Part shown: positions 7,285 to 21,836 of the stretch, piece after piece | Layout of the letters: each line of letters opens with the position of its first letter | Position numbering within the stretch: the stretch's first letter is position 1 | Source: Prochlorococcus sp. MIT 0801 | GTDB taxonomy: Bacteria > Cyanobacteriota > Cyanobacteriia > PCC-6307 > Cyanobiaceae | NCBI RefSeq assembly: GCF_000757865.1 | Contig: NZ_CP007754.1 | Coordinates: 30,001-62,000, forward strand | Direction: 5' to 3' | Length of the DNA stretch: 32,000 bases | Notes under the pieces: generated by a model | Seen by the model: the letters and a program-made list of their open reading frames with translations, nothing else | What the model was told of the DNA's origin: nothing | The model's database searches: none | Program-made: the position numbers and the translations under genes

Positions 7285-9240
7285 TTAGGAGGCGATGTCT
7301 TTGTATTTATCAGTTTGGGTAAGGATTTCAATCGCAGGTTTCAGCATATCTTTATAGTTCTTCCATCCACCAATTGATTTTGAATTGATTGGGGAACGAA
7401 CTTGAACACTACTTGCCGTAGATACTGAGCGTGGATTTAGATGCGGTGTTAAAAATGAATCTTGCCATTTCCACCCTAACCAAGAGATCAAGGATTTAAT
7501 TTCTTCCTTAGGATTGTTGACTAATGAGTCATAATTTAGGTCATATATTTTTGATTTAAATCTATTCTTATATTTTGTCATTAAGTCTTCTTGATCTAAA
7601 TAAACTCTTGTGCAATCAACCAAGCAAGAGGAATAATCATTTCCATTAGCAAAATGTGTTCTGTAAATTGAAAGAATATTATCTAAAGGATTTCTATAGC
7701 AGTGAATAATGTATGCGTTGGGTATATGACAATGAATAATACCTGCGTATTGGTAGTTGTATAACCATTTGTTGGTTGTGATATTCATTTCCGTCTTATT
7801 ATTTACTTTTTTCTTATATAAGTCAGCAAGATTTATATCTTGTTTAGACTTCTTATACTCAAGGAACGATTCCTCAAGAATATTAATTTCACCTAGATCA
7901 TATACATCATTGCTCATACTAAGAATTGATTCCAATAATGTAGAACCACATCTAGGCATTCCTACAATAAAAATACTCTGAGAAGAATTTCTTGATGCTT
8001 TTTTATTAATTTCTTTCTTATCAGACTCAATAAGTAATGCTTTAGATTTATTGAACCTTATTTTAGGTTTAGATGGGTTAATATCAAGTTTTAATTTATT
8101 CGCTAATTTAAGGTATCTAGAACTTTCCTTATAATTTTTTTCCTTATGCAAAATATTTGCTATTGCGAAGTAAATATCAACTTGATTCTTTTGTAATTTA
8201 TTTTTTAAAATATTTTTTGATAAGAGTTGATCCTGCCATATCTTATTCTCATCAGAATAGTTAATTAATGATAGTGAATAGTATGCTTTTGCGAAATCAG
8301 GATTAAGTTCAATTGCTTTGCGGTATGACAATTCTGCGTCTTGTAATTTACCAAGATCTCTCAATACATTCCCCAGATTGGAATGCGCCATTGCGAAATC
8401 AGGTTTGAGTGCAATTGCTTTGCGTTGAGACAATTCTGCATCTTGTAATTTGCCGAGATCTCTCAATACATTCCCCAGATTGGAATGCGCCATTGCGTAA
8501 TCAGGTTTGAGTGCAATTGCTTTGCGGTATGACAATTCTGCATCTTGTAATTTGCCAAGATCATTCAATAAGACTCCCAGATTGGAATGCGCCATTGCGT
8601 AATCAGGTTTGAGTGCAATTGCTTTGCGGTATGACAATTCTGCATCTTGTAATTTGCCAAGATCTCTCAATACATTCCCCAGATTGGAATGCGCCATTGC
8701 GAAATCAGGTTTGAGTGCAATTGCTTTGCGGTATGACAATTCTGCATCTTGTAATTTGCCAAGATCTCTCAATACATTCCCCAGATTGGAATGCGCCATT
8801 GCGTAATCAGGTTTGAGTGCAATTGCTTTGCGGTATGACAATTCTGCATCTTGTAATTTGCCAAGATCTCTCAATACATTCCCCAGATTGGAATGTGCCA
8901 TTACGAAATCAGGTTTGAGTGCAATTGCTTTGCGAGTAGATAATTCTGCTTCTTGTAATTTGCCAAGATCTTTTAATATGATTCCATAATTAGAAAAAAC
9001 TCGGTGATCATTAAAACCTTGATTAATAAAATATTGATAATATTTTATTGCTTCTGAAATATTTCCTTTTACATTAAACTGAATTGCTTGATTAATTATT
9101 TTTTCTTGAGAAAGTTTAGAAATAGTATTGATATTAATAGTAAGATTTTCTTTGATTTCTCCTGAAGCAAATGGAACTGGAAATGTTTTTACTTCAGTGA
9201 CTTTCTTCTTTTCTCCTCCTTCTTGAGTAGAACTATCCAT
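7285..9240 (-). CDS. TPR-repeat protein with a C-terminal sulfotransferase domain
   Basis: About 8 TPR units (AMAHSNLGNVLRDLGKLQDAELSYRKAIALKPDY). The PAPS 5'-phosphosulfate loop is IFIVGMPRCGSTLLESIL, and the C-terminal ...RSPINSKSIGGWKNY is typical of TPR-sulfotransferases. Starts with ATG at 9240. Confidence 0.85.
   Translation of the reverse strand: MDSSTQEGGEKKKVTEVKTFPVPFASGEIKENLTININTISKLSQEKIINQAIQFNVKGNISEAIKYYQYFINQGFNDHRVFSNYGIILKDLGKLQEAELSTRKAIALKPDFVMAHSNLGNVLRDLGKLQDAELSYRKAIALKPDYAMAHSNLGNVLRDLGKLQDAELSYRKAIALKPDFAMAHSNLGNVLRDLGKLQDAELSYRKAIALKPDYAMAHSNLGVLLNDLGKLQDAELSYRKAIALKPDYAMAHSNLGNVLRDLGKLQDAELSQRKAIALKPDFAMAHSNLGNVLRDLGKLQDAELSYRKAIELNPDFAKAYYSLSLINYSDENKIWQDQLLSKNILKNKLQKNQVDIYFAIANILHKEKNYKESSRYLKLANKLKLDINPSKPKIRFNKSKALLIESDKKEINKKASRNSSQSIFIVGMPRCGSTLLESILSMSNDVYDLGEINILEESFLEYKKSKQDINLADLYKKKVNNKTEMNITTNKWLYNYQYAGIIHCHIPNAYIIHCYRNPLDNILSIYRTHFANGNDYSSCLVDCTRVYLDQEDLMTKYKNRFKSKIYDLNYDSLVNNPKEEIKSLISWLGWKWQDSFLTPHLNPRSVSTASSVQVRSPINSKSIGGWKNYKDMLKPAIEILTQTDKYKDIAS
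8293..9006 (-). repeat. Tandem 102-bp (34-codon) TPR coding repeats: 7 units, six of them nearly identical at nucleotide level
   Basis: Visible periodicity. Adjacent units around 8609-8806 are almost base-for-base identical. Confidence 0.9.
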
Positions 9241-10556: not shown

Positions 10557-12737
10557 TTACGATTTACAAACCCAGAACTGATACATACCTTCGAAGGTAT
10601 TGGGATGTTTTTCTTCAAACTTTGCCCAGTTTTGTAAGTTCGTTTGTTTTTTATCTTCTGGGAAATATTGCTCATAGATCGATTTAATTTGTTTTTGAAG
10701 CAAGAATCCAAGAAACTTTAATTCATTAGATTTGAGAATTTCTTGTAGTTGCTTAATGTTGAATCTATGTTCCTGTGCATGAAAACAAAGATCACGGCAA
10801 GAAGAAAGTGTATAGAAATCAGAACTCTTTGTTAGAGAGTTTATTTCTGGTGTTTTTCCGGAAAAGATAGTTTCTCTAAAATTACGAATATGGTCCTCAT
10901 TTGTTTGAAGTTTTTTGCTGGCAATATAATTCCTTGCTTTAATAATATTTTGTCTTGCTAATTCGCTATATAAACCCAATTTAAGAAATCCATTAGTTTT
11001 TAAAACCCCTAATAATGCTTTCAAACCTTTTGAGGGTTCATCCATATGATGTAAAACCCCTGAACATAAAATGATATCAAATTTTTCCTCTAGTAAATTA
11101 ACTTCTAAGATATCCATTTGAATCAATTTAACATTATTGATTTCAAGTTCTTTTATTTTTCTTTGGGCATAAGAAAGACTAGACAAACTTAAATCTATGC
11201 CAGTAATCGTAGCATGGTTATAAATTTTCGCATGTAAAATCTGTTGACCTGTTCCACACCCAGCAATTAGAACTTTTAATTGACTATTTTCAGATTTGAA
11301 ATTGATAGAACTAGGTTTTATTTCATTATTTATTGCCTGTGTAATAGATATCTTTTGACTTTCTAAATTATTCCCATACCTCCATCTAGGATATGGATTT
11401 TTCTCATATTGTGATTTTACTTTTCGAGAAATATAATCATTTATTCTACCTAGTTTTTTTATATTCTTAGACAAGTCAATTTCTTCTAGAGGTTCTGATA
11501 TTTGTATGTTTATTAATTCTTTAAAACTTTGATTTGAAGAATTAAAAGATTTCAAAGATGGTATCCTATCCAGGAGTTTATATAAAGAAAAATAACAAGA
11601 TAAAATTGAAATATTTATCTCATTTAATTCATTATTTTGGCATCTTTTGATGATATTATTTAGAGATATATTTTCTTCTTCAGTTAATGAGAAAATATAT
11701 TCGTTAAGGAAGCATTGTTTTCCTAAAGTAATAATAAATTGTAATTCATAGTAATTTATTTCTTTTTTATTCTTTGCAATTTTAATGCATAAATACTTTC
11801 TTAAATTCGTTAGCAATTTCTCAAATCTAATATCCTGAAAAGTTATTTTTTTAAGGGCATTGATTATGACTTTATTATTAATTATTAATTCTATCTGGGA
11901 ACATTCTGAATCTAATTTTTCTAGTTTACTGATTATTTCATTGTTATATACATAGTTAAATGAGTTTATTAATTCTTTATGAGATATATCATTTCTTTCT
12001 AGTAGAAGATTTAATATAGTTTTCACTTTTGATTTGCTTAACTTTGACGTATCAAAATCTCTAAGAAATTCCGTTATGAAGGAATAAATATTAGGATATG
12101 TTGGATTAATTTTAATTATTTGCAAGTAAGAATCAAATGCTTCTTCTAACTTGCCAACATCTGTCAATATTATCCCCAGATTTAAATGTGCTTCTGCGAA
12201 ATTAGGATTCAGTTCAATTGCTTTGAGGTATGAGATTTCTGCGTCTTGTAATTTGCCAAGATCTGTCAATGTTATTCCCAGATTGTAATGTGCTTCTGCG
12301 AAATCAGGTTTAATATCAATTGCTTTTCGGTGGCATAATTCTGCATCTTTTAATTTGCCAAGATCTCTCAATGTTATTCCTAGATTGGAACGTGCTTCTG
12401 CGAAATCAGGTTTAATATCAATTGCTTTTCGGTGGCATAATTCCGCATCTTTTAATTTCCCAAGATCTCTCAATATCACTCCATAATTAGAAAAAACTTT
12501 GTGATCCTTATAACCTTGATTAATAAAAAGTTGATAATATTTTACCGCTTCTGAAACGTTTCCCTGTAAATGAAACTGGATTGCTTGATTAATGATTTGT
12601 TCTTTAGATGGTTTAGAAGAAGTATTTGTATTAATAGTAAGATTTTCTTTGATTTTTCCTAAATCAAATGCAACTGGGAATGTTTTCACCTCGGACATCT
12701 TCTTCTTTCCTTCATCTTCTTGACTAGAAAGATCCAT
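10557..12737 (-). CDS. TPR-repeat protein with a C-terminal class-I SAM-dependent methyltransferase domain
   Basis: 4 TPR units. Motif I is VLIAGCGTGQQ and motif II/III is DIILCSGVLHHMDEP. The track starts at a TTG at 12776. I prefer the ATG at 12737 (MDLSSQEDEGKKK...), which aligns with the paralog start MDSSTQEGGEKKK. Confidence 0.85.
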   Translation of the reverse strand: MDLSSQEDEGKKKMSEVKTFPVAFDLGKIKENLTINTNTSSKPSKEQIINQAIQFHLQGNVSEAVKYYQLFINQGYKDHKVFSNYGVILRDLGKLKDAELCHRKAIDIKPDFAEARSNLGITLRDLGKLKDAELCHRKAIDIKPDFAEAHYNLGITLTDLGKLQDAEISYLKAIELNPNFAEAHLNLGIILTDVGKLEEAFDSYLQIIKINPTYPNIYSFITEFLRDFDTSKLSKSKVKTILNLLLERNDISHKELINSFNYVYNNEIISKLEKLDSECSQIELIINNKVIINALKKITFQDIRFEKLLTNLRKYLCIKIAKNKKEINYYELQFIITLGKQCFLNEYIFSLTEEENISLNNIIKRCQNNELNEINISILSCYFSLYKLLDRIPSLKSFNSSNQSFKELINIQISEPLEEIDLSKNIKKLGRINDYISRKVKSQYEKNPYPRWRYGNNLESQKISITQAINNEIKPSSINFKSENSQLKVLIAGCGTGQQILHAKIYNHATITGIDLSLSSLSYAQRKIKELEINNVKLIQMDILEVNLLEEKFDIILCSGVLHHMDEPSKGLKALLGVLKTNGFLKLGLYSELARQNIIKARNYIASKKLQTNEDHIRNFRETIFSGKTPEINSLTKSSDFYTLSSCRDLCFHAQEHRFNIKQLQEILKSNELKFLGFLLQKQIKSIYEQYFPEDKKQTNLQNWAKFEEKHPNTFEGMYQFWVCKS
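12096..12503 (-). repeat. Tandem 102-bp TPR coding repeats (4 units)
   Basis: Periodicity in both DNA and protein (DLGKLKDAELCHRKAIDIKPDFAEA occurs twice, almost identically). Confidence 0.85.
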
Positions 12738-12970
12738 CTTCTCTCCTGGTTCTTTTGACTTTACTACTAATCTCAACTCTTATGACTTCTTTCTGAAATC
12801 ATATACCACCTATAGAGCAAGAATAAAAAGTAGATCTCTATATTATTTCTTTACGTATATGACCAGCTGACAAAAACATAGATGGCCACATAAATCGTAG
12901 AGAAATAATATACTACTTCTCTACATTTTATAGTTCCACACGAAAAAACCTTAAAAGTTATGGCATTTTC

Positions 12971-12992
12971 ATTTTCACACCATTTCCACACC
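12971..12992 (+). repeat. Iteron-like pair ATTTTCACACC ATTTCCACACC
   Basis: Direct reading; 11-bp period. A single copy, AGTTCCACACG, is at 12932-12942. Confidence 0.6.
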
Positions 12993-12995
12993 GCA

Positions 12996-13030
12996 TATTA
13001 AGTGGTGCAAACCATATGCACCACTTAATA
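12996..13030. repeat. Perfect 14-bp inverted repeat TATTAAGTGGTGCA-N7-TGCACCACTTAATA
   Basis: Direct reading. It lies 13 bp left of the att-like copy at 13044. Confidence 0.85.
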
Positions 13031-13098
13031 ATTTCCATAGTTGCTATTGAGTGGGAATAGCAGAAACGTCTACTTTCCAGTGATAATTTGATTTATAT

Positions 13099-13120
13099 GG
13101 TTTTACGTAGGTTTTACATG
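13099..13120 (+). repeat. Iteron pair GGTTTTACGTA GGTTTTACATG
   Basis: Direct reading. Confidence 0.9.
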
Positions 13121-13158
13121 AGAGGATAGAGAACCTATGGCTAGGTTTTGGATGGGTC

Positions 13159-13180
13159 TGTTTTACGTAGGCTTTACGTG
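13159..13180 (+). repeat. Iteron pair TGTTTTACGTA GGCTTTACGTG
   Basis: Direct reading. Confidence 0.9.
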
Positions 13181-13327
13181 CTATTTGTAAAGATGAACCC
13201 CTTTGTTTGGTGCTTTAATTCGATCCATTTTGACTCTCTTTGTCGGTTTAGTGATGGGGACAATACTAATACAAATGTACTATATTTATCTATTAGGTCA
13301 AGTCACTTATTTTGTTCCATTAAAGAA

Positions 13328-13351
13328 GGGAGCGAGATTTTGGTCGCTCCC
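13328..13351 (-). terminator. Hairpin GGGAGCGA-loop-TCGCTCCC, copy 2 of the conserved hairpin module
   Basis: 8-bp perfect stem with the same GATTTTGG loop as copy 1. The downstream ~100 nt partly align with 9809-9900. Confidence 0.5.
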
Positions 13352-13720
13352 TCTGAGTCAAGCACTCAACTGACTGAACTTAAATTTTCATCCTTTATTT
13401 ACTTTGACCCACAGAAGGTGCTGTGACTTCTAATTCATTAATTAAAAATCCAGATCAGGTAGAACATGAGAAAAAACTCCTGTTTAACCAACCACCCAAT
13501 AATCTTTGTGTTTTCTGAGAATGAGTTTGAGAAGATCGGGAATCATTCGTTTTACCTCAATATTTCAACTTTAAGTAATCAGGAACAAGGTGTGGAAGTG
13601 TTCCAAGTGAGATTAAAAAGACAGAAAACCAAAGAAAGATCGATGAAAGAGTATTCGACCCATTGGATCTGAAACTACGTGTTGTTTGCATAATTAGACC
13701 TCCTGTTAGTTCAATGTTTT

Positions 13721-13906
13721 TTAGTAGTCCATTGAGCAGTTGCCAAACTGCAAGCATTCATTCTCATAATCGACCTCATCAAAATCAGCTTCATAATTCG
13801 AAACCAGATCGCACCAATCGTTCCCTTGCATCGGAACTCCACAAGATTTCGAGAATGTTTCTTTTACGTCTTCGATTGCATGTTTAAAAGGATTACCGCA
13901 TGCCAT
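13721..13906 (-). CDS. Hypothetical small acidic Cys-containing protein (61 aa)
   Basis: A strong Shine-Dalgarno site (AGGAGG) ends 6 nt upstream of the ATG (minus-strand reading CTATTAGGAGGTCAAACCATG). The protein is MACGNPFKHAIEDV...ECLQFGNCSMDY. Confidence 0.5.
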   Translation of the reverse strand: MACGNPFKHAIEDVKETFSKSCGVPMQGNDWCDLVSNYEADFDEVDYENECLQFGNCSMDY

Positions 13907-14361
13907 GGTTTGACCTCCTAATAGTGCCTTGATTTATATCTACTCCTCCTAATAAAAAATATCTATAGGACAAAAACCCTAAAGTATTAACTCTGATTAC
14001 CCTACAAAGAAAAAACCCTGCAACTAATCAGGGGTTTGGGTTGTTCCGACCATTGCAGAGACCGCACGAAAGGTGACTCTGTTCACATCAGGAGGTGTGA
14101 GATGTCTCCTTAGAGTCAATGTACATTTCCCTTTTTTTAATATCTTCGAGAGTGCTATTACTCTTAATTTATATTCAATACCACTAATCAAAAATATCTA
14201 TGCAGAGAATCCAAATGTAGAAATACCTTGGTGTTCTCACCCCTATGAATTTCCATTTAATAGGAGTAGAACAAGATCAGGAGTCAAAGCACTTCAATTT
14301 CTGGGGTGATGGACTCGAAGGGGAGAAATACATGCCCCCTTACTTCATTTGAGGTATCTCT

Positions 14362-14532
14362 ATGACTAGAAAAAGAGACAAGATTTGGACAGCAATCATT
14401 GCAACTAGACAATGGTTCACCAAACTTTTTACTAGTGAGGCAGATGCTTTAGTTGATAACTTCGGAAATAATCCACCACCAGAGATAGGACCTCAATCTT
14501 ATTCGGGAGATATTCACGATAAAGGAGACTGA
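14362..14532 (+). CDS. Hypothetical 56-aa protein (not in the ORF track because it is under 60 aa)
   Basis: My translation is MTRKRDKIWTAIIATRQWFTKLFTSEADALVDNFGNNPPPEIGPQSYSGDIHDKGD. GAGG ends 7 nt upstream of the ATG, and the hairpin at 14560-14593 follows. Confidence 0.3.
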   Translation: MTRKRDKIWTAIIATRQWFTKLFTSEADALVDNFGNNPPPEIGPQSYSGDIHDKGD

Positions 14533-14559
14533 TTGAATTCATTTAAATTGCATTAAGAA

Positions 14560-14634
14560 AGGGACCCTGCTGCTTCAGCGACCTTGAGTCCCTCTCTTCA
14601 TTGACAGAACGAATTTTGGTAAGGAGTTGTTCTG
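14560..14634. ncRNA. Hairpin plus stem-loop module, variant copy: stem CAGAAC/GTTCTG with loop GGTAAGGAGTT (plus strand) or AACTCCTTACC (minus strand)
   Basis: Colinear with 15011-15083 and 21351-21421. The strand of expression is undetermined. Confidence 0.4.
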
Positions 14635-14824
14635 CTTTTCCTTTTCTAATCAATTTCACAAAGGTTCTGCATCCGAAAAAATTCCTAATTAGATATCGTC
14701 CTCACTGTTTCCGAATGGGTTGTATCTGATATCAAAAATCAAAACTACTGCTGTGCTTAAAAGCAGTAATCCAAAAACAACTTGGGGAGGTGGAAATATC
14801 ATTAGACCACTCTAGAAAAGGCAC

Positions 14825-14920
14825 AAAAAAACCGCCCAGTTCTGTTAGGGCGGTTTCTTTGTGAGATCAGGCGCAAGTGTTTCCTTGTTTCCACTGCGGA
14901 GGATCTCAACTCCTCACAAA
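14825..14920 (-). ncRNA. Yfr2-family-like sRNA
   Basis: Minus-strand reading: a TAAGTT -10-like box, then UGUGAGGAGUUGAGAUCCUCCGCAGUGGAAACAAGGAAACACUUGCGCCUGAUCUCAC, then the terminator AACCGCCC-N10-GGGCGGUUUUUUU. Length is about 95 nt. The GUGAGGAGU seed and GGAAACA-rich loop match my recollection of Yfr2-5. Confidence 0.6.
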
Positions 14921-15010
14921 ATAAACTTAATCAACATGACTCTTAGAAGGAATCCTGAGTATTTGAGTTCTTGAACTGTCACATATGACAATTCTTGTAC
15001 ATAAGGTATT

Positions 15011-15126
15011 AAAAAAGCACCCCACTTAAGCGAAGTTGAGTGCCTTTTTATAACAGAACTATTGTGTGAGGAGTTATTCTGTTATTTCATTTCTACTCCT
15101 GCATGCACCTTTTGTCACTACTAAAA
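15011..15126. ncRNA. Hairpin plus stem-loop module: stem AACAGAA/TTCTGTT with loop carrying TGTGTGAGGAGTT (plus strand) or AACTCCTCACACA (minus strand)
   Basis: A bidirectional-looking terminator hairpin at 15017-15043 is flanked by A- and T-runs. A conserved TTTTGTCACTACTAAAA box is at 15110-15126. Read on the minus strand, it contains the exact ACUCCUCACAC motif known from Yfr1. Confidence 0.45.
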
Positions 15127-15269
15127 AGATAAACTGATGAGAACCTACAAAATAGGAATAAGAACAAAGGATCCAAGAATAAAAAGTGGCGACCTTGCAC
15201 GAGTTCTATCAATCATTAGATCCTGAATCAAATAAACTTTCTGAGTGGATTTGTGAAAAATAGAAGATT

Positions 15270-15632
15270 ATGGATGAAACTTGGTTAAAAGAACTCAATC
15301 AAAGAAATATTGAGTTGGAAGGAGAAGATAGGGCGAAATGGGATGGTGCAACTGTCTCTGTTTCCTTCTCAGTTTTAAACAAATTAAGTCAGGCAGAACA
15401 AGGGAAATTTGAGATTACTGAATTCAAAAGAGCAACGAATGAAATTGAGCATTGGGCACGAGTAGAAGAAATATGCGATTTCTTTGGAGTTGTAGACCCT
15501 GATCTAGCAGGAGATGTCTATGTCAGAAAGTTCAAAAACTTAACTGTAGATGAAGAGAGTAAATGGATGGATTTAAAAGATATTAATGACGAGATGCCTG
15601 AGGGTTTTGGCGTAAAAATCGATCGGAGTTAA
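15270..15632 (+). CDS. Hypothetical acidic protein (120 aa)
   Basis: An ORF of a length unlikely by chance at this GC content. It is D/E-rich and followed by an imperfect hairpin at 15633-15658. Confidence 0.5.
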   Translation: MDETWLKELNQRNIELEGEDRAKWDGATVSVSFSVLNKLSQAEQGKFEITEFKRATNEIEHWARVEEICDFFGVVDPDLAGDVYVRKFKNLTVDEESKWMDLKDINDEMPEGFGVKIDRS

Positions 15633-15686
15633 GGGAAGGCAAATAATTGTTTGCTCCCTTGTCAATGAAAATATTTGCTAATTGAC

Positions 15687-15708
15687 GGTTCCACGTAAGG
15701 TCCATGTG
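15687..15708 (+). repeat. Iteron pair, decayed CC variant: GGTTCCACGTA AGGTCCATGTG
   Basis: Direct reading. Confidence 0.7.
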
Positions 15709-15764
15709 GTAAAACAGGGGAGCAAATCCCTATATACCACTAAATAATTCAAGTAGGTGCTGTG

Positions 15765-15781
15765 CTATTGGGTAGGAATAA
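15765..15781 (+). repeat. Decayed att-like copy (CTATTGGGTAGGAATAA)
   Basis: 14 of 17 bases match the guaA end. It sits in the same position relative to the downstream degenerate iterons and the CGTAGAAAG motif as the other copies. Confidence 0.55.
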
Positions 15782-15913
15782 TACTGACTACTAAAACGTA
15801 GTTATAGACTTAAAATATATATTCCCCGTGAGTTCTCTGTGAACGTGAACTGAGGAAGTGACAAGGGTTTTCAAGTGCTCTGTTACTCGTGAGACTTTGT
15901 CACCTACTCTGCA

Positions 15914-15945
15914 GAGAAATCGTAGAAAGATGGTTTTTCTCTACA
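15914..15945 (+). repeat. Boundary motif GAGAAATCGTAGAAAGATGGTTTTTCTCTACA
   Basis: Direct reading. It holds the same position relative to the TPR-gene 3' tail as the copies at 7131 and 10486. Confidence 0.8.
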
Positions 15946-15973
15946 AAATTAAATATTTTATGGTGTGGACTTT

Positions 15974-16084
15974 TCAATTTTCCGTATTACACGCCCAGAA
16001 TTGAAACATTCCTATGAAGGTCGTGGGGTGTTGCTCTTCATGTTTTGGTCACGTTTGTAAGTTTGTTTGCGTCTTGTCTTTTCC
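15974..16084 (-). pseudogene. Decayed fossil of the methyltransferase-type C-terminal tail, in frame after the stop of the 16085 gene
   Basis: My translation after the TAA at 16087-16085 gives GKDKTQTNLQT-stop-PKHEEQHPTTFIGMFQFWACNTEN-stop. The intact tail in the 10557 gene is KKQTNLQNWAKFEEKHPNTFEGMYQFWVCKS. Confidence 0.65.
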
Positions 16085-18007
16085 TTAAATTCCTATTAAT
16101 TTCACCGCAACTTGCTTCGTCATATAGGAGATCGCCAAAACTTCATAACTTAAATTATTATTAGAGCAAAATTCATTGAGTGCTTTATATTCATCCTGCT
16201 CCCAATTTTTATTAATAATAAACTCATCAAATATTAAAATTGTATCTTTATCTATGACAGACTTTGAATAGTTCAAGGCACAAATAGTAGAAGAATATAG
16301 ATCGGCATCAAAATTGATTAGTGATGCGATAGGTCTAGGTTTGGAATAAAAAGTTGGAAGTGTTTCTTCAAATTTACCTGCTATAAATGTTCCGCCATCA
16401 ATGTTGGGAATGACTCCATCTGCTGAATAAAATCCTTGTTTCTCTTCATGCCAATCTTCTGGTAAGCCTTGAAAAGTATCAAATCCATAACCTTTTTTGA
16501 AGGTATTAATTAAGTACTGAAAGGATTCACCTCGCCAAACACCAAACTCATAGAAAGGGCGATCTGTTTTGCTTTTATTAATCATACTGTCAAATAATGC
16601 CCATCTATGAAAAAACAATTCAGGTAACTTTGGTAAAGTAGAAACCCATTTTAGGGAACGGATTGTAGGATGATCTTTATAAATTGATTGTATAAGATTA
16701 TCAAATAATGATTGATAACCTTGATGTAATTTTAGACCACTTAGAGAGAGTTTTGCTTCTAAATGATTTTCATCTATTTTCAAGCATTGATTAATCCTTT
16801 CTTCTGCTTCCTCAATAGTATTGGCTAATCCATATAAATTCCAAGCAGCTTCAGCGAAATCAGGTTTAAGTTGAATTGCTTTGCGAAATGACAATTCTGC
16901 TTCTTGTAATTTACCAAGATCACTCAATATGATGCCCAGATTGGAATGCGCCTCTGCGTAATCAGGATTAATTTCAATTGCTTTGCGATATGAGATTTCT
17001 GCTTCTTGTAATTTGCCAATATTATTTAATATGTTTCCCATATTTAGATGCGCCATTGCGAAATCAGGTTTAAGTTGAATTGCTTTGCGAAATGACGATT
17101 CTGCTTCTTGCAATTTGCCAAGATCTTTCAATATGTTTCCTAGATTGGAATGCGCCTCTGCGAAATCAGGATTAATTTCAATTGCTTTGCGATATGAGAT
17201 TTCTGCTTCTTGGAATTTGCAAAGATCTCTCGAAATGGTTCCCAGATTGTAATGCGCCTCTGCGAAATCAGGATTAATTTCAATTGCTTTGCGAAATGAC
17301 AATTCTGCTTCTTGCAATTTGCCAAGATCTCTCGAAATGGTTCCCAGATTGTAATGCGCCTCTGCGAAATCAGGATTAATTTCAATTGCTTTGCGAAATG
17401 ACAATTCTGCTTCTTGCAATTTGCCAAGATCTTTCAATATGTTTCCTAGATTGGAATGCGCCTCTGCGAAATCAGGATTAATTTCAATTGCTTTGCGATA
17501 TGAGATTTCTGCTTCTTGCAATTTGCCAAGATCTTTCAATATGACTCCCAGATTGGAATGCGCCATAGCGCAATTAGGATTAATTTCAATTGCTTTACGA
17601 GTAGATAATTCTGCTTCTTGTAATTTGCCAACATTTTTTAATATGTCTCCCAAATTTACATACGCATCTCTGTACTCAGGATTAATTTCAATTGCTTTGC
17701 GAAATGACAATTCTGCTTCTTGTAATTTGCCTAGAGTTTTTAATATGACTCCATAATTACAAAAAACTTTGTGGTGAGAGAAACCTTCATTAATGAAATA
17801 TTGATAATATTTTTCTGCTTCTGAAATGTTTCCTTGTGAATGAAACTTAAATGCTTGATTTATTATTTGTTCTTTAGAAGGTTTCGAAGGCGTGTTAGTG
17901 GAAATAGAGATATTCTCTTTAATTTCTCCTAAACTAAATGGAACTGGGAATGTTGTTATTTCAGTGACTTTTTTTTTAACCTCTTTTATTGGACCGGATT
18001 CTTCCAC
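16085..18007 (-). CDS. TPR-repeat protein with a C-terminal TylF/macrocin-O-methyltransferase-like domain
   Basis: 9 TPR units. The C-terminal FYEFGVWRGESF...GFDTFQGLPEDW...LINFDADLYSSTICALN...ILIFDEF matches the TylF-family pattern. The start codon at 18007 is GTG, at the position aligned with the ATG of the paralogs. Confidence 0.8.
   Translation of the reverse strand: MEESGPIKEVKKKVTEITTFPVPFSLGEIKENISISTNTPSKPSKEQIINQAFKFHSQGNISEAEKYYQYFINEGFSHHKVFCNYGVILKTLGKLQEAELSFRKAIEINPEYRDAYVNLGDILKNVGKLQEAELSTRKAIEINPNCAMAHSNLGVILKDLGKLQEAEISYRKAIEINPDFAEAHSNLGNILKDLGKLQEAELSFRKAIEINPDFAEAHYNLGTISRDLGKLQEAELSFRKAIEINPDFAEAHYNLGTISRDLCKFQEAEISYRKAIEINPDFAEAHSNLGNILKDLGKLQEAESSFRKAIQLKPDFAMAHLNMGNILNNIGKLQEAEISYRKAIEINPDYAEAHSNLGIILSDLGKLQEAELSFRKAIQLKPDFAEAAWNLYGLANTIEEAEERINQCLKIDENHLEAKLSLSGLKLHQGYQSLFDNLIQSIYKDHPTIRSLKWVSTLPKLPELFFHRWALFDSMINKSKTDRPFYEFGVWRGESFQYLINTFKKGYGFDTFQGLPEDWHEEKQGFYSADGVIPNIDGGTFIAGKFEETLPTFYSKPRPIASLINFDADLYSSTICALNYSKSVIDKDTILIFDEFIINKNWEQDEYKALNEFCSNNNLSYEVLAISYMTKQVAVKLIGI
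16856..17773 (-). repeat. Tandem 102-bp TPR coding repeats (9 units, several nearly identical)
   Basis: Periodicity. For example, AEAHYNLGTISRDL.K.QEAE.S.RKAIEINPDF occurs twice in succession. Confidence 0.9.
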
Positions 18008-18210
18008 TATGCCGTTTTTATCTTTTGATTACTGGACTTTACTACATACTCCAATCCTTGTTGATTCTTTCTGAAATTATTTTGGAACTGATAGAGCGAG
18101 AAGAAAATTAGGTCTCTATATTATTTCTCTATAAAAGTTTCATTGAGTGTATATCCCCTTGTAATTTGTTGGTATGACTTGGTTTTAGGGGGTCTTCTTT
18201 TGCGAAAACC

Positions 18211-18226
18211 TTTTGAGAGGGTATAG
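18211..18226 (+). repeat. Decayed att-like copy (TTTTGAGAGGGTATAG)
   Basis: 13 of 16 bases match. The surrounding ~250 bp (18121-18390) is colinear with 9361-9740, including the identical TTTAGGGCAGTCAAAC flank. Confidence 0.6.
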
Positions 18227-18294
18227 TTTAGGGCAGTCAAACGTTGTCCACTACTCAAAATATACTTCCACTTCCACTTGTCACCGTTTCTATT

Positions 18295-18325
18295 GAGAAA
18301 TCGTAGAAAGTCGTTTTTCTCTACA
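18295..18325 (+). repeat. Boundary motif GAGAAATCGTAGAAAGTCGTTTTTCTCTACA
   Basis: Direct reading. Confidence 0.8.
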
Positions 18326-18539
18326 TCTACTATTTTTAGTCAAATCTATAGGGATCTAAATTTGGAACATTAATTGACGATTTCTCTATATATTTTTCTG
18401 TATTCACTACTTAAAAAGCACAAAAAAACACCCCTTTGGATGCTCTCTTAGCACAGAACAATGTATTCTAATCAAGGATAAATTATGGCGAGGCTTCAAA
18501 AAAGACGTGATCATTTAAATAAGAGATAGTTAGGGTCCA

Positions 18540-19268
18540 ATGTCATTTGAAGTTACTTACAACGGGGATATTCAATACGTTAAGGTTTTCTACTCAACTG
18601 AAAAAACGAGAGCTGGAAAATATTATGGCGAGTTTTATAAAAAAATGGATGCAATAGCTAGTGACTTAAAACGCCTTAAACAGGAACTTGATGAAGATAG
18701 TGAAAAGGCAGCGAAGATTGCTAAAGATGCTGCTAATAAAGCACTTTCTGAAAGATTTGGCTCACTTCGATACATTATTGATGAGCATATATGGGATGAA
18801 GACATGGTTATCAGCAAGATTCTTGATGACAGAAAAGAAGAGATGTTGGCATTAGCACAGAAGACTTTTAATAATGAAGTTCTTCTTGAAGAGGATGGGG
18901 CAGAGGAATACAAAATTCACTTGGCTGAAGGAACAGTCGAAGTTGATGGTGAAAGTGTAGAGACATCGATAATGGAGTTTTTTGATTCTGACGACTACCA
19001 CGTATCGAATGAGGCAAAACTAGAAAAATTGGAACAATTGGATTGGTTTATAATCTGGTCGAGAACCGAAGCAGGAGAGTTTAAGACAGAGGGTGGACTA
19101 CACGAGGGGAATTTTTCATCAAAGGACTTAAATATGGAAAATTGTTTGCTTACTTACCGAGATTTACCTCTTGTTACTCCCTCTAATGGCACGGACATCT
19201 TCAGTAATGAACTTGAAATTCATTTTGTAGATGAAACTAGGGCAACCCTTGAGATCAGTGAAGCTTAA
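18540..19268 (+). CDS. Hypothetical acidic protein (242 aa)
   Basis: A long ORF, very unlikely by chance. It is strongly D/E-rich and I recognise no motif. Confidence 0.6.
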   Translation: MSFEVTYNGDIQYVKVFYSTEKTRAGKYYGEFYKKMDAIASDLKRLKQELDEDSEKAAKIAKDAANKALSERFGSLRYIIDEHIWDEDMVISKILDDRKEEMLALAQKTFNNEVLLEEDGAEEYKIHLAEGTVEVDGESVETSIMEFFDSDDYHVSNEAKLEKLEQLDWFIIWSRTEAGEFKTEGGLHEGNFSSKDLNMENCLLTYRDLPLVTPSNGTDIFSNELEIHFVDETRATLEISEA

Positions 19269-19572
19269 GTGGCATTTTTATGAATTTGATGGTCTACTAA
19301 TTCCCAACTATTGCAAATTAGTTCTCTTCGAGTTCTGTTGCAATATCTAAATTGATTTCTTTTGTGTCTTTAATTTTGTGGGACTTCCTTCAATAGTCTT
19401 TCAGTAAAGTTGACTGAATAAAGGTGGGAAATTAGTTGTTGATTTTGGATCAGGGTAAATAACACTCAAAAATCTCTTTGTGAATAAACTAATCAACCTG
19501 TAATCGTTGGTCATGCCTCTAGTCATAGTTCGTTCATTCATCCGTCTCTTGGATAATTCAAAAGATCCAAAA

Positions 19573-19604
19573 AGCACCTTTTTACTAGTATTGAACAAGG
19601 TGCT
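19573..19604. terminator. Hairpin AGCACC-N20-GGTGCT flanked by A- and T-runs
   Basis: Direct reading. The following CAAGAATGCTTTCGTGAGTGAC resembles a decayed copy of the ACAGAACGATTTGGTGAGGAG module. Confidence 0.4.
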
Positions 19605-19715
19605 TTTTGCTCAAGAATGCTTTCGTGAGTGACAATCTTAGTACAGATACACTCTTTCGGCGTTTAGTGTCGTCAAGTAATTTGAGGAAAAATCAGAAAG
19701 ATTTGCCTAACTTGT

Positions 19716-20540
19716 ATGCATTCCTATTTCATTTTACGGGAAGCTATGAATGAATTACGTCTAAGAATCTATAAGGAGCTAATAAATAACTCACCAGGAG
19801 GCAGAACTTCTGTATCCAATAAAATCTGTGGTGTTACTATTTTTATTTCGATTTTTTTTGCTGTTATCATTACTGAAAACTCAATCGATTATCAATTTGG
19901 AGATCAAATAGATTTTTTGGATTGGATTATTGGCGGTTTGTTTTGCGTGGAATATCTTTGTCGTTTATGGGTCGCACCACTTGAAAAAAAGTACGGACAA
20001 GGTTGGAAAGGCGTTTTGCGTTATGTAATCTCACCATTGGCAATTATTGATGTAATTGCAATCGTCCCATCTTTTTTTGGTGTTCGTGCCGAATTAAAGA
20101 TTCTTAGAATTATTCGTCTTTTAAGAATATTGAAAATTGGAAGAAGTGAAAAATTTAAGCAGAGTATTTATCACTTTAATTATGCACTTCGATCCAAGAG
20201 TCAAGAACTACAAATTTCGACTTTTTATACAGTTTTACTTTTGTTGATTAGCAGTACTTTTATGTATCTTGCTGAATCTTCTATTCAACCAGAATTGTTA
20301 GGTTCAATCCCAAGATGTCTTTGGTGGTCGATTACAACTGTCAGTGCTGTTGGATATGGAGATTCAATACCAGTTACAGCATTTGGAAAAATAATTGCAT
20401 CGATTACTTCTCTTATGGGTATTGCTGCAATTGCAATACCCACTGGAATACTTGCATCTGGATTCAGCGAATCAATTGGTGTACAAGATAAAAAGAACAA
20501 AATTTCTAATGTAGTTCAGCTTCCTACTAATACTGATTAA
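19716..20540 (+). CDS. 6TM voltage-gated-type K+ channel
   Basis: S4-like LKILRIIRLLRILKIGR. The pore region IPRCLWWSITTVSAVGYGDSIPVT aligns with KcsA YPRALWWSVETATTVGYGDLYPVT. The start may be the second ATG at 19746. Confidence 0.85.
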   Translation: MHSYFILREAMNELRLRIYKELINNSPGGRTSVSNKICGVTIFISIFFAVIITENSIDYQFGDQIDFLDWIIGGLFCVEYLCRLWVAPLEKKYGQGWKGVLRYVISPLAIIDVIAIVPSFFGVRAELKILRIIRLLRILKIGRSEKFKQSIYHFNYALRSKSQELQISTFYTVLLLLISSTFMYLAESSIQPELLGSIPRCLWWSITTVSAVGYGDSIPVTAFGKIIASITSLMGIAAIAIPTGILASGFSESIGVQDKKNKISNVVQLPTNTD

Positions 20541-20802
20541 TAATGATATTCAAATCAAAAACGGAAAATAATTTACTGAATATGAAGCTATAGATTTAAT
20601 GGTGTCATTGAGTGGAACTGACGCAAATTCAGAAAAGGAAATGGAGATGTTGCCATAGCTCTCTATCGCAGAAAGATTGAAAGGAGTATTTGGACGAATA
20701 CTGGATAAACTATGAAATAAAAAATGGGATAAAAAATAAGTGCATCACATATCTGTTATCAGTTGATTAGTGGAATAACCCTTTAAATTTGTTGATTGAA
20801 AA

Positions 20803-21042
20803 CTATTTACCGCCATTGCAGAAGCGAACTGCATTAGATGAACTCTTGCCTGTAGCTTGTACCTCTTCAACACATTCAATGAATACGTTCGATTCTTGTT
20901 TGAGAGAACAAAAACTAATGGCGATAGCCGCAAGAGCCACAGCAGAAAGAACACTAGAACCTAGTTGAATAATGCCATAAGCAAACATCGCTTTACTTTT
21001 CCCTCCACACTTCTTTTTGTCAGTTTTATTTTCTTCAGTCAT
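20803..21042 (-). CDS. Hypothetical single-pass membrane protein (79 aa)
   Basis: Lys-rich N-terminus, one clear TM segment (FAYGIIQLGSSVLSAVALAAIAISF) and a Cys-containing tail. It overlaps the alternative-frame ORF 20745..20954, which I reject. Confidence 0.45.
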   Translation of the reverse strand: MTEENKTDKKKCGGKSKAMFAYGIIQLGSSVLSAVALAAIAISFCSLKQESNVFIECVEEVQATGKSSSNAVRFCNGGK

Positions 21043-21164
21043 AAGTGATTTGGTTAATGTTTAAATTTAATTGATTTGGTGGTTTAATTATTTCATAAAA
21101 ATGTCGTGAATACCGTTCTACTTGCTTGTTTTGGATGTTGTTTTTTCTAAATTTAAATAATGTC

Positions 21165-21258
21165 ATAAAAACCGCGTCGTTATGACCAAGGCGGTTTTTA
21201 TGAGATCGGGCGCAAGTGTTTCCTTGTCTCCACTGTGGATGATCTCAACTCCTCATTA
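21165..21258 (-). ncRNA. Yfr2-family-like sRNA (second full copy)
   Basis: Minus-strand reading: a TAAATT -10-like box, then AUGAGGAGUUGAGAUCAUCCACAGUGGAGACAAGGAAACACUUGCGCCCGAUCUCAU, then the terminator AAAAACCGC-N15-GCGGUUUUU. It is colinear with 14825-14920. Confidence 0.6.
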
Positions 21259-21350
21259 AAAATTTATTTGCACATTTGATGAACAAACTCAAATATTGGC
21301 AGGTTGCTTTATTGATTGTCATATGTCAGCATTCGTAAAAGTAGTCATTA

Positions 21351-21465
21351 AAAAAGCACCCTCCTTGCAAGAAGATGGGTGCTTTTTTAAACAGAACGAT
21401 TTGGTGAGGAGTTGTCTTGTTAAATTTATTTCTACTCTAATGAAGAGTTTTTGTCACTACTAAAA
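21351..21465. ncRNA. Hairpin plus stem-loop module: loop TTGGTGAGGAGTT (plus strand) or AACTCCTCACCAA (minus strand)
   Basis: Terminator-like hairpin GCACCC-N15-GGGTGC at 21356-21382, stem AACAGAAC/GTCTTGTT at 21390-21421 and the box TTTTTGTCACTACTAAAA at 21448-21465. Its spacing to the Yfr2-like gene is the same as in the 14.8-15.1 kb copy. Confidence 0.45.
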
Positions 21466-21518
21466 TGGAAATGACTTAGATCATGAAGGTAAATTGTTTT
21501 ATACCCTTCAAGATTAAT

Positions 21519-21836
21519 TTAGTCTTCTGCGTTCTCAAACTGTTTTGCTAATCTAAAACCTTTTCTTAGAATTAAATATATTCCGTATAAACCAGCAATT
21601 AAGGGAAGAACTATTAAAGGGTTTAGACTATAATTAGAATAGTCTTTCACACCATCAACATATTCGATTCCTGAGCATTTCAAATAAAGAAAACTTGTGA
21701 AGATAATTCCCCAGCCAATGATGGAGAGAATTCCTCCTTTTTTGTCACCTTCATAAAATCTATCTAAACCCCATCCCCAACCAATCGCAAGGATCACTCC
21801 TCTTGTGATAGCATTTTTTTCTTGCTTACGTAACAT
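21519..21836 (-). CDS. TM2-domain membrane protein
   Basis: GWGWGLDRFYEGDKKGGILSIIGWGIIF fits the TM2 domain pattern (G.hG.hRFY.G...G). It has two or three hydrophobic helices. Confidence 0.6.
   Translation of the reverse strand: MLRKQEKNAITRGVILAIGWGWGLDRFYEGDKKGGILSIIGWGIIFTSFLYLKCSGIEYVDGVKDYSNYSLNPLIVLPLIAGLYGIYLILRKGFRLAKQFENAED

Follow-up and report, generated by a model that had tools for sequence, protein, structure and literature searches.

The closest described relatives of the elements analysed here are the small RNAs Yfr10, Yfr12 and Yfr18 of Prochlorococcus MED4. Each carries ACUCCUCACAC, with the motif in a loop, and their genes are located directly upstream of Yfr2, Yfr4 and Yfr5, respectively; a 270-nt RNA, the joint precursor of Yfr10 and Yfr2, was detected as well (Steglich et al. 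2008, PMC2518516). Yfr2 binds Yfr1 and Yfr10, blocking pairing with ppa mRNA; Northern blots of Yfr10 are available for MED4, SS120 and WH8102 (Lambrecht et al., PMC6778093). In NATL2A, a strain of low-light clade I (LLI), ‘yfr10-like’ transcribed intergenic contigs with no Rfam model match were listed; one such element of this metatranscriptome (983243–983323) is located directly upstream of yfr2 (983395–983510) (Lott et al. 2020, PMC7368042, Table S2). Further NATL2A entries of that table are at 386802–386896 and 44984–45069.

Yfr1 (RF01116) shares with the elements described below the 11-mer ACUCCUCACAC, which is ultraconserved, and is likewise complementary to Yfr2. In Yfr1, two stem-loops flank the unpaired linker that holds the motif; in all Prochlorococcus the locus lies between guaB and trxA (PMC2190773). 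Titration of an RNA by RNA pairing or mimicry is also a feature of enterobacterial sRNA–sponge pairs (GlmY/GlmZ; ChiX and the chbBC spacer; SroC–GcvB); their sequences are unrelated and, unlike in these pairs, the two genes of the locus studied here are adjacent and duplicated as a cassette. Pairing of Prochlorococcus sRNAs is not known to involve Hfq.

Modules and cassettes in the window

The window, i.e. the whole stretch of 32,000 nt, contains three copies (c1, c2 and c3) of a module made of a stem-loop and a terminator. These modules very probably are minus-strand genes for trans-acting sRNAs of the Yfr10 family that are titrated by Yfr2. The host is assigned by sequence to LLI (NATL-like) Prochlorococcus; the PBP2 encoded in the window is 83–95% identical to those of Prochlorococcus single-cell genomes, MIT 0916 and MIT 1012. 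The main features are as follows.

15126→14825 and 21465→21166, minus: cassettes A and B (Yfr10-like gene and Yfr2 gene)
15090–15126, minus: c2 promoter (−35 GTGACA at 15118–15113, 17-nt spacer, −10 TAGAAA at 15095–15090)
15010–15086, minus: c2, Yfr10-like sRNA gene of cassette A (Rfam Yfr10, covariance model R2, fold)
15084–15076 and 15059–15051, minus: 5′ and 3′ stem arms of c2
15075–15060, minus: 16-nt loop of c2, AACUCCUCACACAAUA
15050–15011, minus: terminator hairpin of c2 and U6
14977–14990, no strand assigned: palindrome TGTCACATATGACA, in the spacer that separates Yfr2-A from the c2 terminator
14825–14923, minus: Yfr2-A, Yfr2-family sRNA gene (Rfam Cyano-1, RF01701, at 14923–14859, 64.2 bits versus a threshold of 41)
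ending at 14825, minus: Yfr2-A terminator, CCGCCC..GGGCGG and U7
14555–14639, minus: c1, Yfr10-like paralogue downstream of Yfr2-A, with an altered seed
21428–21465, minus: c3 promoter (−35 GTGACA, 17-nt spacer, −10 TAGAAA)
21349–21424, minus: c3, Yfr10-like sRNA gene of cassette B (R2, Rfam Yfr10, synteny)
21166–21262, minus: Yfr2-B and its terminator (RF01701 at 21262–21198, 45.8 bits versus a threshold of 41)
15051–15084, ~21390–21421 and ~14603–14636: stem (A)ACAGAA(C)/(G)TTCTGT(T) with its 16–18 nt loop
15110–15126 and 21449–21465: box TTTTGTCACTACTAAAA

An earlier note, made from the sequence alone, had described three copies with a shared stem and loop, boxes and hairpins, and all these features were found in place. 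Read on the minus strand, each module has an 8–9 bp stem, a loop of 16–18 nt, a GC-rich hairpin and then a U-run. The stem pairs (U)AACAG(A/G)A(C/U) with (A/G)UUCUGUU(A) and presents CUCCU(C/U)AC in the loops of c1, c2 and c3. Hairpins flanked by A- and T-runs are located at 15010–15050 and 21349–21389; the runs are weaker in the copy at 14560. Predicted transcripts, with 5′ and 3′ ends inferred from sequence, are 73–77 nt long and end in the hairpin and U6. Compared with shuffled sequences, the minus-strand folds of the three copies have z-scores of −6.3, −4.4 and −3.3, the first of them belonging to c2 (−24.4 kcal/mol).

The c2 seed AACUCCUCACACA spans 15075→15063 of the minus strand and is an exact 11-mer inside the 16-nt loop. 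Searching the window for the 11-mer with up to two mismatches gave 5 matches versus 4.4 expected; with this lack of enrichment, the 11-mer alone is uninformative at window scale. Similarity of the modules as a whole is far above chance. In c3, the stem AACAAGAC/GUUCUGUU has one A–C mismatch, and the loop AACUCCUCACCAAAUC, in which the equivalent motif reads ACUCCUCACCA, is followed by a terminator with U6. Given this mismatch and the changed 3′ part of the seed (CACCAAA versus CACACAA), c3 may be partly impaired.

The c2 and c3 cassettes are 80% identical across 372 aligned columns. The duplicated unit of ~330 nt has the minus-strand order box TTTTAGTAGTGACAAAA, GAGTAGAAAT, stem-loop with terminator, palindrome spacer and another RNA gene, which has a terminator of its own. 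Yfr2-A and Yfr2-B, with which the earlier note did not connect the modules, are each located ~90 nt downstream of c2 and c3, respectively, on the same strand. The arrangement recurs in relatives: in an Rfam scan of seven of them, a Yfr10-like match was found upstream on the same strand for 13 of 13 Cyano-1 genes. Of 29 related loci, at least 22 have a module positioned like c3, on the strand opposite to the PBP2 gene and ~1.75 kb upstream of it, and further module subtypes occur within the same 10 kb of these loci.

The 5′ end of Yfr2-A, UUGUGAGGAGUU, is complementary to the c2 loop; Yfr2-B has the 5′ variant AAUGAGGAGUU. Duplexes were computed between a loop and a 5′ end; duplex folding of full-length RNAs, which is blind to intramolecular structure, was dropped. 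The loops of c1, c2 and c3 form 10–16 bp with the two Yfr2 5′ ends at −14 to −21 kcal/mol, compared with a mean of about −7 kcal/mol for shuffles. Duplexes of c2 with Yfr2-A (−20.4 kcal/mol), c3 with Yfr2-B (−16.7 kcal/mol) and c1 with Yfr2-A (−18.7 kcal/mol) were each matched by none of 500 shuffles. The C-to-U change in c1 retains the pairing with Yfr2 through a G–U pair; the same G–U-preserved pairing was noted for Yfr12 (Steglich et al. 2008, PMC2518516). In loop versus 5′-end folding of c4, a fourth, decayed copy, complementarity to Yfr2 was lost and no such duplex formed.

The palindrome between c2 and Yfr2-A is conserved in 17 aligned spacers, with the consensus AATTG(T/G)CACATGTGACAGT; in relatives the consensus reads TGTCACATGTGACA, also given as AATTGTCACATGTGACAGTCAAT. 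In the copy at locus B (21317–21328) one half-site is degenerate. For the Yfr2 promoter, we regard the palindrome as a candidate operator. It directly follows the terminator of the upstream sRNA and precedes Yfr2, which fits the place described for CGRE1, the operator of GntR regulator PMM1637 (PMC6191309). Judged by this position, it is possibly a CGRE1 site bound by a PMM1637/PlmA-type GntR regulator.

Placement in the Yfr10 family

When thresholds are relaxed, Yfr10 (RF02362) matches the modules better than any other Rfam model; its match is on the minus strand and places the same stem, loop and terminator. The scores (c2, 37.8 bits, E 0.0054; c3, 27.9 bits, E 0.63; c1, no match to this model) leave all window copies under the gathering threshold of 43 bits. 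Two syntenic orthologues of c3 pass it, with 45.9 bits in locus L030 and 43.7 bits in L018 (strain MIT 0916). The RF02362 consensus has a stem AUCAGAA/UUCUGAU around CUCCUCACACAC, followed by the terminator. Its seed sequences are evidently high-light-clade RNAs, and the sub-threshold scores seem to reflect a limitation of this seed alignment, not a difference in architecture. The Rfam Yfr10 model under-detects LLI members, which could be annotated with a model based on the 30 LLI copies.

The true Yfr2 neighbours point to the known tandem arrangement and thereby to placement in the Yfr10 family (Yfr10, Yfr12 and Yfr18 of MED4; the yfr10-like RNAs of NATL2A, SS120 and WH8102). Window modules resemble Yfr10 in length (~75–80 nt), in presenting the motif ACUCCUCAC(AC) in a loop atop an (A/U)CAGAA/UUCUG(A/U) stem that is followed by a terminator, in the position of the gene directly upstream of a same-strand Yfr2 homologue and in a loop complementary to the Yfr2 5′ end. 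With Yfr2/Cyano-1 (RF01701) as the partner, the pairs in the window mirror Yfr10–Yfr2, Yfr12–Yfr4 and Yfr18–Yfr5 of MED4. Not every copy has all these features. The hairpin-loop motif and the complementarity to Yfr2 are present in c1, c2 and c3; an RNA of ~78 nt ending in a Rho-independent terminator is predicted, with a weak U-tract in c1; a Yfr2 homologue directly downstream is found for c2 and c3 and is missing for c1 and c4. Three differences deserve mention: the loop context is AACUCCUCACACAAU instead of ACUCCUCACACACUAA; LLI genomes hold several subtypes within ~10 kb; and c1, with its altered seed CUCCUUACC, is placed after a Yfr2 gene.

Resemblance to Yfr1 is confined to the motif and the Yfr2 complementarity. 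Unlike Yfr1, the modules have the motif within a hairpin loop with no 5′ stem-loop ahead of it, and they have other neighbours: TPR-repeat proteins, an ion channel, hypothetical proteins and PBP2. The search with the Yfr1 model, suggested earlier as a check, found no match at E ≤ 10 in 14300–21800 and none at gathering score in the whole window. The earlier view that the modules belong to no described family is superseded by the Yfr10 architecture, the RF02362 match and the orthologues above threshold. What holds of that interpretation is a structured minus-strand sRNA displaying a seed; its plus-strand alternative and the unplaceable family do not.

Strand signals, conserved promoter and terminator, stem covariation, synteny and complementarity are observed; transcription, target pairing and titration by Yfr2 are modelled on published MED4 experiments, as follows. 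Each Yfr10-like gene would be transcribed from its own sigma-70-type promoter, GTGACA-17-TA(G/A)AAA, into a transcript of ~75 nt ending at the Rho-independent terminator. The 8–9 bp stem would hold the C/U-rich seed AACUCCUCAC(AC) open in the 16–18 nt loop. By analogy with MED4 Yfr10, the seed would pair with GGAG-containing mRNA sites; it could also pair with the complementary Yfr2 5′ end UGUGAGGAGUU, so that Yfr2 would titrate the regulator as a sponge. As Yfr2 is ~90 nt downstream on the same strand, regulator and antagonist would be made side by side, with Yfr2 behind a palindromic operator-like site in two cassettes. Occasional read-through would produce a single ~260-nt precursor.

Such a precursor could also be the main product, with the seed hairpin as the 5′ part of a ~260-nt primary transcript that is processed into Yfr2 and acts in cis, e.g. 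by masking the Yfr2 5′ end. The loop is indeed complementary to that end, the stretch from the predicted start at 15085 to 14825, where the Yfr2-A terminator ends, measures 261 nt, and a precursor of 270 nt that comprises Yfr10 and Yfr2 was reported in MED4 (PMC2518516). We nevertheless consider this reading improbable. All copies retain a strong terminator with U5–U7 behind the seed hairpin, and Yfr2 has a conserved operator-like and promoter region of its own in front of it. Loci L018 and L012 keep a Yfr10-like gene with no Yfr2 behind it, c1 stands alone, and in MED4 a discrete Yfr10 RNA of 78 nt accumulates. A single transcript is compatible with separate trans-acting Yfr10-type RNAs and does not exclude them.

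For the field, these results change little: a published Yfr10-type arrangement with its antagonist Yfr2 is extended to an LLI Prochlorococcus genome. Novelty is small, with the conserved variant-seed paralogue (CUCCUUACC) as the only mildly new aspect.

Strand, structure and conservation

The promoter GTGACA-17-TA(G/A)AAA is kept in 32 copies from relatives. Their upstream consensus, TAGTGACAAAAaGTcCt.AtAGGAGTAAAAAT, which can also be written TAGTGACAAAA-N-GAGTA(A/G)AAAT, ends ~5 nt before the stem. The box TTTTGTCACTACTAAAA is the −35 region with the A/T tract upstream of it, viewed from the opposite strand. In a generic promoter scan of the window the GTGACA/TAGAAA pair scored under the cut-off and was not listed; the promoter call rests on conservation.

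In the helix columns of the alignment, 49 cells form G–U pairs only on the minus strand and would be C–A mismatches if read on the plus strand, versus 16 cells that favour plus. The terminator U-tract is located 3′ of the hairpin on the minus strand. Together with the conserved promoter, these signals identify minus as the predicted functional strand, in agreement with the earlier minus-strand reading of a Yfr1-type motif in an RNA whose 3′ end is formed by the hairpin and U-tract.

A functional plus strand, giving a Yfr2-type RNA with the seed GUGAGGAGUU, was offered earlier as the alternative. The plus strand does fold (z −3.1 and −5.2), and runs are present on both sides of the hairpins. 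At the modules, though, the Cyano-1 model gave no plus-strand match at E ≤ 10, and only the neighbouring minus-strand genes matched. The modules, unlike Yfr2, carry the complementary seed and have neither the GGAAACA loop element nor GGAAACAAGGAAACAC, the second element conserved in Yfr2. No terminator is found 3′ of the seed hairpin in that direction, where the models match the terminator only, and both the wobble counts (49 versus 16) and the direction of the conserved promoter favour minus. We regard a plus-strand function as highly improbable.

The covariance model R2, built from other genomes only, was applied to the window without filters. Its minus-strand matches are listed below; on the plus strand its matches cover bidirectional terminators only.

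c2, minus: 87.2 bits, E 1.8e-15
c3, minus: 87.0 bits, E 1.9e-15
c1, minus: 37.3 bits, E 1.2e-5
c4, 19645→19567, minus: 23.0 bits, E 0.008
remnant, 18475→18421, minus: 16.7 bits, E 0.14

These matches and the fold z-scores bear out the earlier idea of structured sRNA modules in multiple copies with a seed in the loop. Alignment of the stem was also proposed as a check. In 30 aligned copies, 95.8% of the seed stem is paired, and three pairs have undergone compensatory changes (e.g. C–G to G–C in L002_621 and A–U to U–A in the UACAGAAC subtype). One pair shows a one-sided G–U/A–U alternation (20 versus 10 sequences). None of 500 shuffles reached the observed pairing measures, a slide of the partner by 1–3 columns collapsed the pairing and RNAalifold recovered the same stem from relatives alone. 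Since the copies are closely related, the covariation is supportive, not decisive, and the shuffle control overstates the support. The loop is the most conserved part of the module across genomes (it holds 10 of the module's 22 invariant columns), and its similarity does extend to other strains, as the earlier reading demanded.

Among viral contigs, CAACTCCTCAC-N5-9-GTTCTGT had five matches, none of which fitted model R1, giving no sign of phage-borne copies there; exact-protein look-ups of the flanking ORFs returned only short Logan contigs. Bidirectional hairpins, along with decayed copies in a variable, island-like region, could suggest that the modules are mere bidirectional terminators, 3′ UTR elements or a selfish repeat whose loop likeness has no function, but there is very little chance of this, given that c2, c3 and c4 have no coding gene upstream on the minus strand, that the loop is the most conserved part, the stem covaries and the promoter keeps a fixed distance, and that neither terminal repeats nor a transposase were found.

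Variant and decayed copies and their surroundings

The c1 loop carries AACUCCUUACCAAAAUUC, with the altered seed CUCCUUACC and the equivalent-loop motif ACUCCUUACCA. The gene has its own −10 box, TTAGAAAA at ~14652–14645, and a terminator GGGAC..GUCCC with a weak U-tract (UUUCUU). Near-identical copies, including the variant loop and the −10 box, were detected in three relatives and eight metagenome contigs, and the order Yfr10-like gene, Yfr2, c1 is found in all four metagenome contigs with enough upstream sequence. The metagenome search with the c1 loop also collected unrelated sequences (13 of 21 matches). Hence c1 is no private decay product. Copies at the c1 position in other relatives have CUUCUCACAC, CUCCUCAAC or CUCCUCGUC.

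Two further copies are damaged.

19567–19645, minus: c4, decayed copy of a related subtype (R2; homologues in L002 and L013)
18421–18480, minus: seed-deleted remnant of a third Yfr10-like subtype (28-nt gap in the alignment)

The first of these had been suspected as a fourth, decayed copy, and its R2 match (23.0 bits, E 0.008) agrees. Its terminator and 5′ region are conserved, the −10 box is weakened and the seed reads GUCACUCAC in place of the CUCCUCAC retained, together with a TTGACG-17-TAGTAT promoter, by the homologues in L002 and L013. The remnant at 18421–18480, a fifth copy that the earlier note did not contain, was aligned with the intact L005_4987, L013_3718, L019_313 and L025_1224. 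It has kept the −10 box, the 3′ stem arm and the terminator; a 28-nt deletion took the CUCCUCAC loop together with the 5′ arm. The remnant has no Yfr2 gene downstream. Damaged seeds were also seen in the syntenic copies of L004 (8182–8256, minus, ACUUCUCACUC) and L005 (8179–8255, minus, ACUCUUUUCACAC), along with a U–G stem variant; seed decay at a conserved position is therefore recurrent across genomes.

We offer only as a tentative idea, on balance doubtful, that the LLI island upstream of PBP2 is a birth-and-death nursery of regulator and sponge cassettes in which paralogues gain new seeds. If this were true, it would amount to seed diversification inside one sponge-controlled network. The variants, if expressed, would have targetomes distinct from those of Yfr1 and Yfr10, yet could be titrated by Yfr2 through G–U pairs. 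The cassettes, the variant-seed paralogue and the decayed copies make up a small natural data set on the duplication, divergence and death of an sRNA with its sponge.

Several other repeated elements are present nearby. Three TPR-repeat paralogues, all on the minus strand (7285–9240, 10557–12776 and 16085–18007), have similar N-termini and differing C-terminal enzyme domains; in two of them these are a sulfotransferase and a SAM methyltransferase. One TPR gene contains 102-nt tandem repeats (16746–17861), and upstream regions 12757–12853 and 18035–18131 are also repeated. This TPR region looks like a variable genomic island. A 41-nt direct repeat (TTGTCACC...GAGAAATCGTAGAAAG; 15897–15937 and 18278–18318, 78% identity) flanks the TPR gene at 16085–18007 and has a promoter-like GTGACA hexamer inside on the minus strand. 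Another direct repeat, of 39 nt (79% identity), is located at 13928–13966 and 14163–14201. Finally, the ~2.5 kb at 12776–15270 have no long ORF and include this 39-nt repeat and a bidirectional terminator-like hairpin (14016–14033); additional sRNAs or small ORFs may be encoded in this interval.
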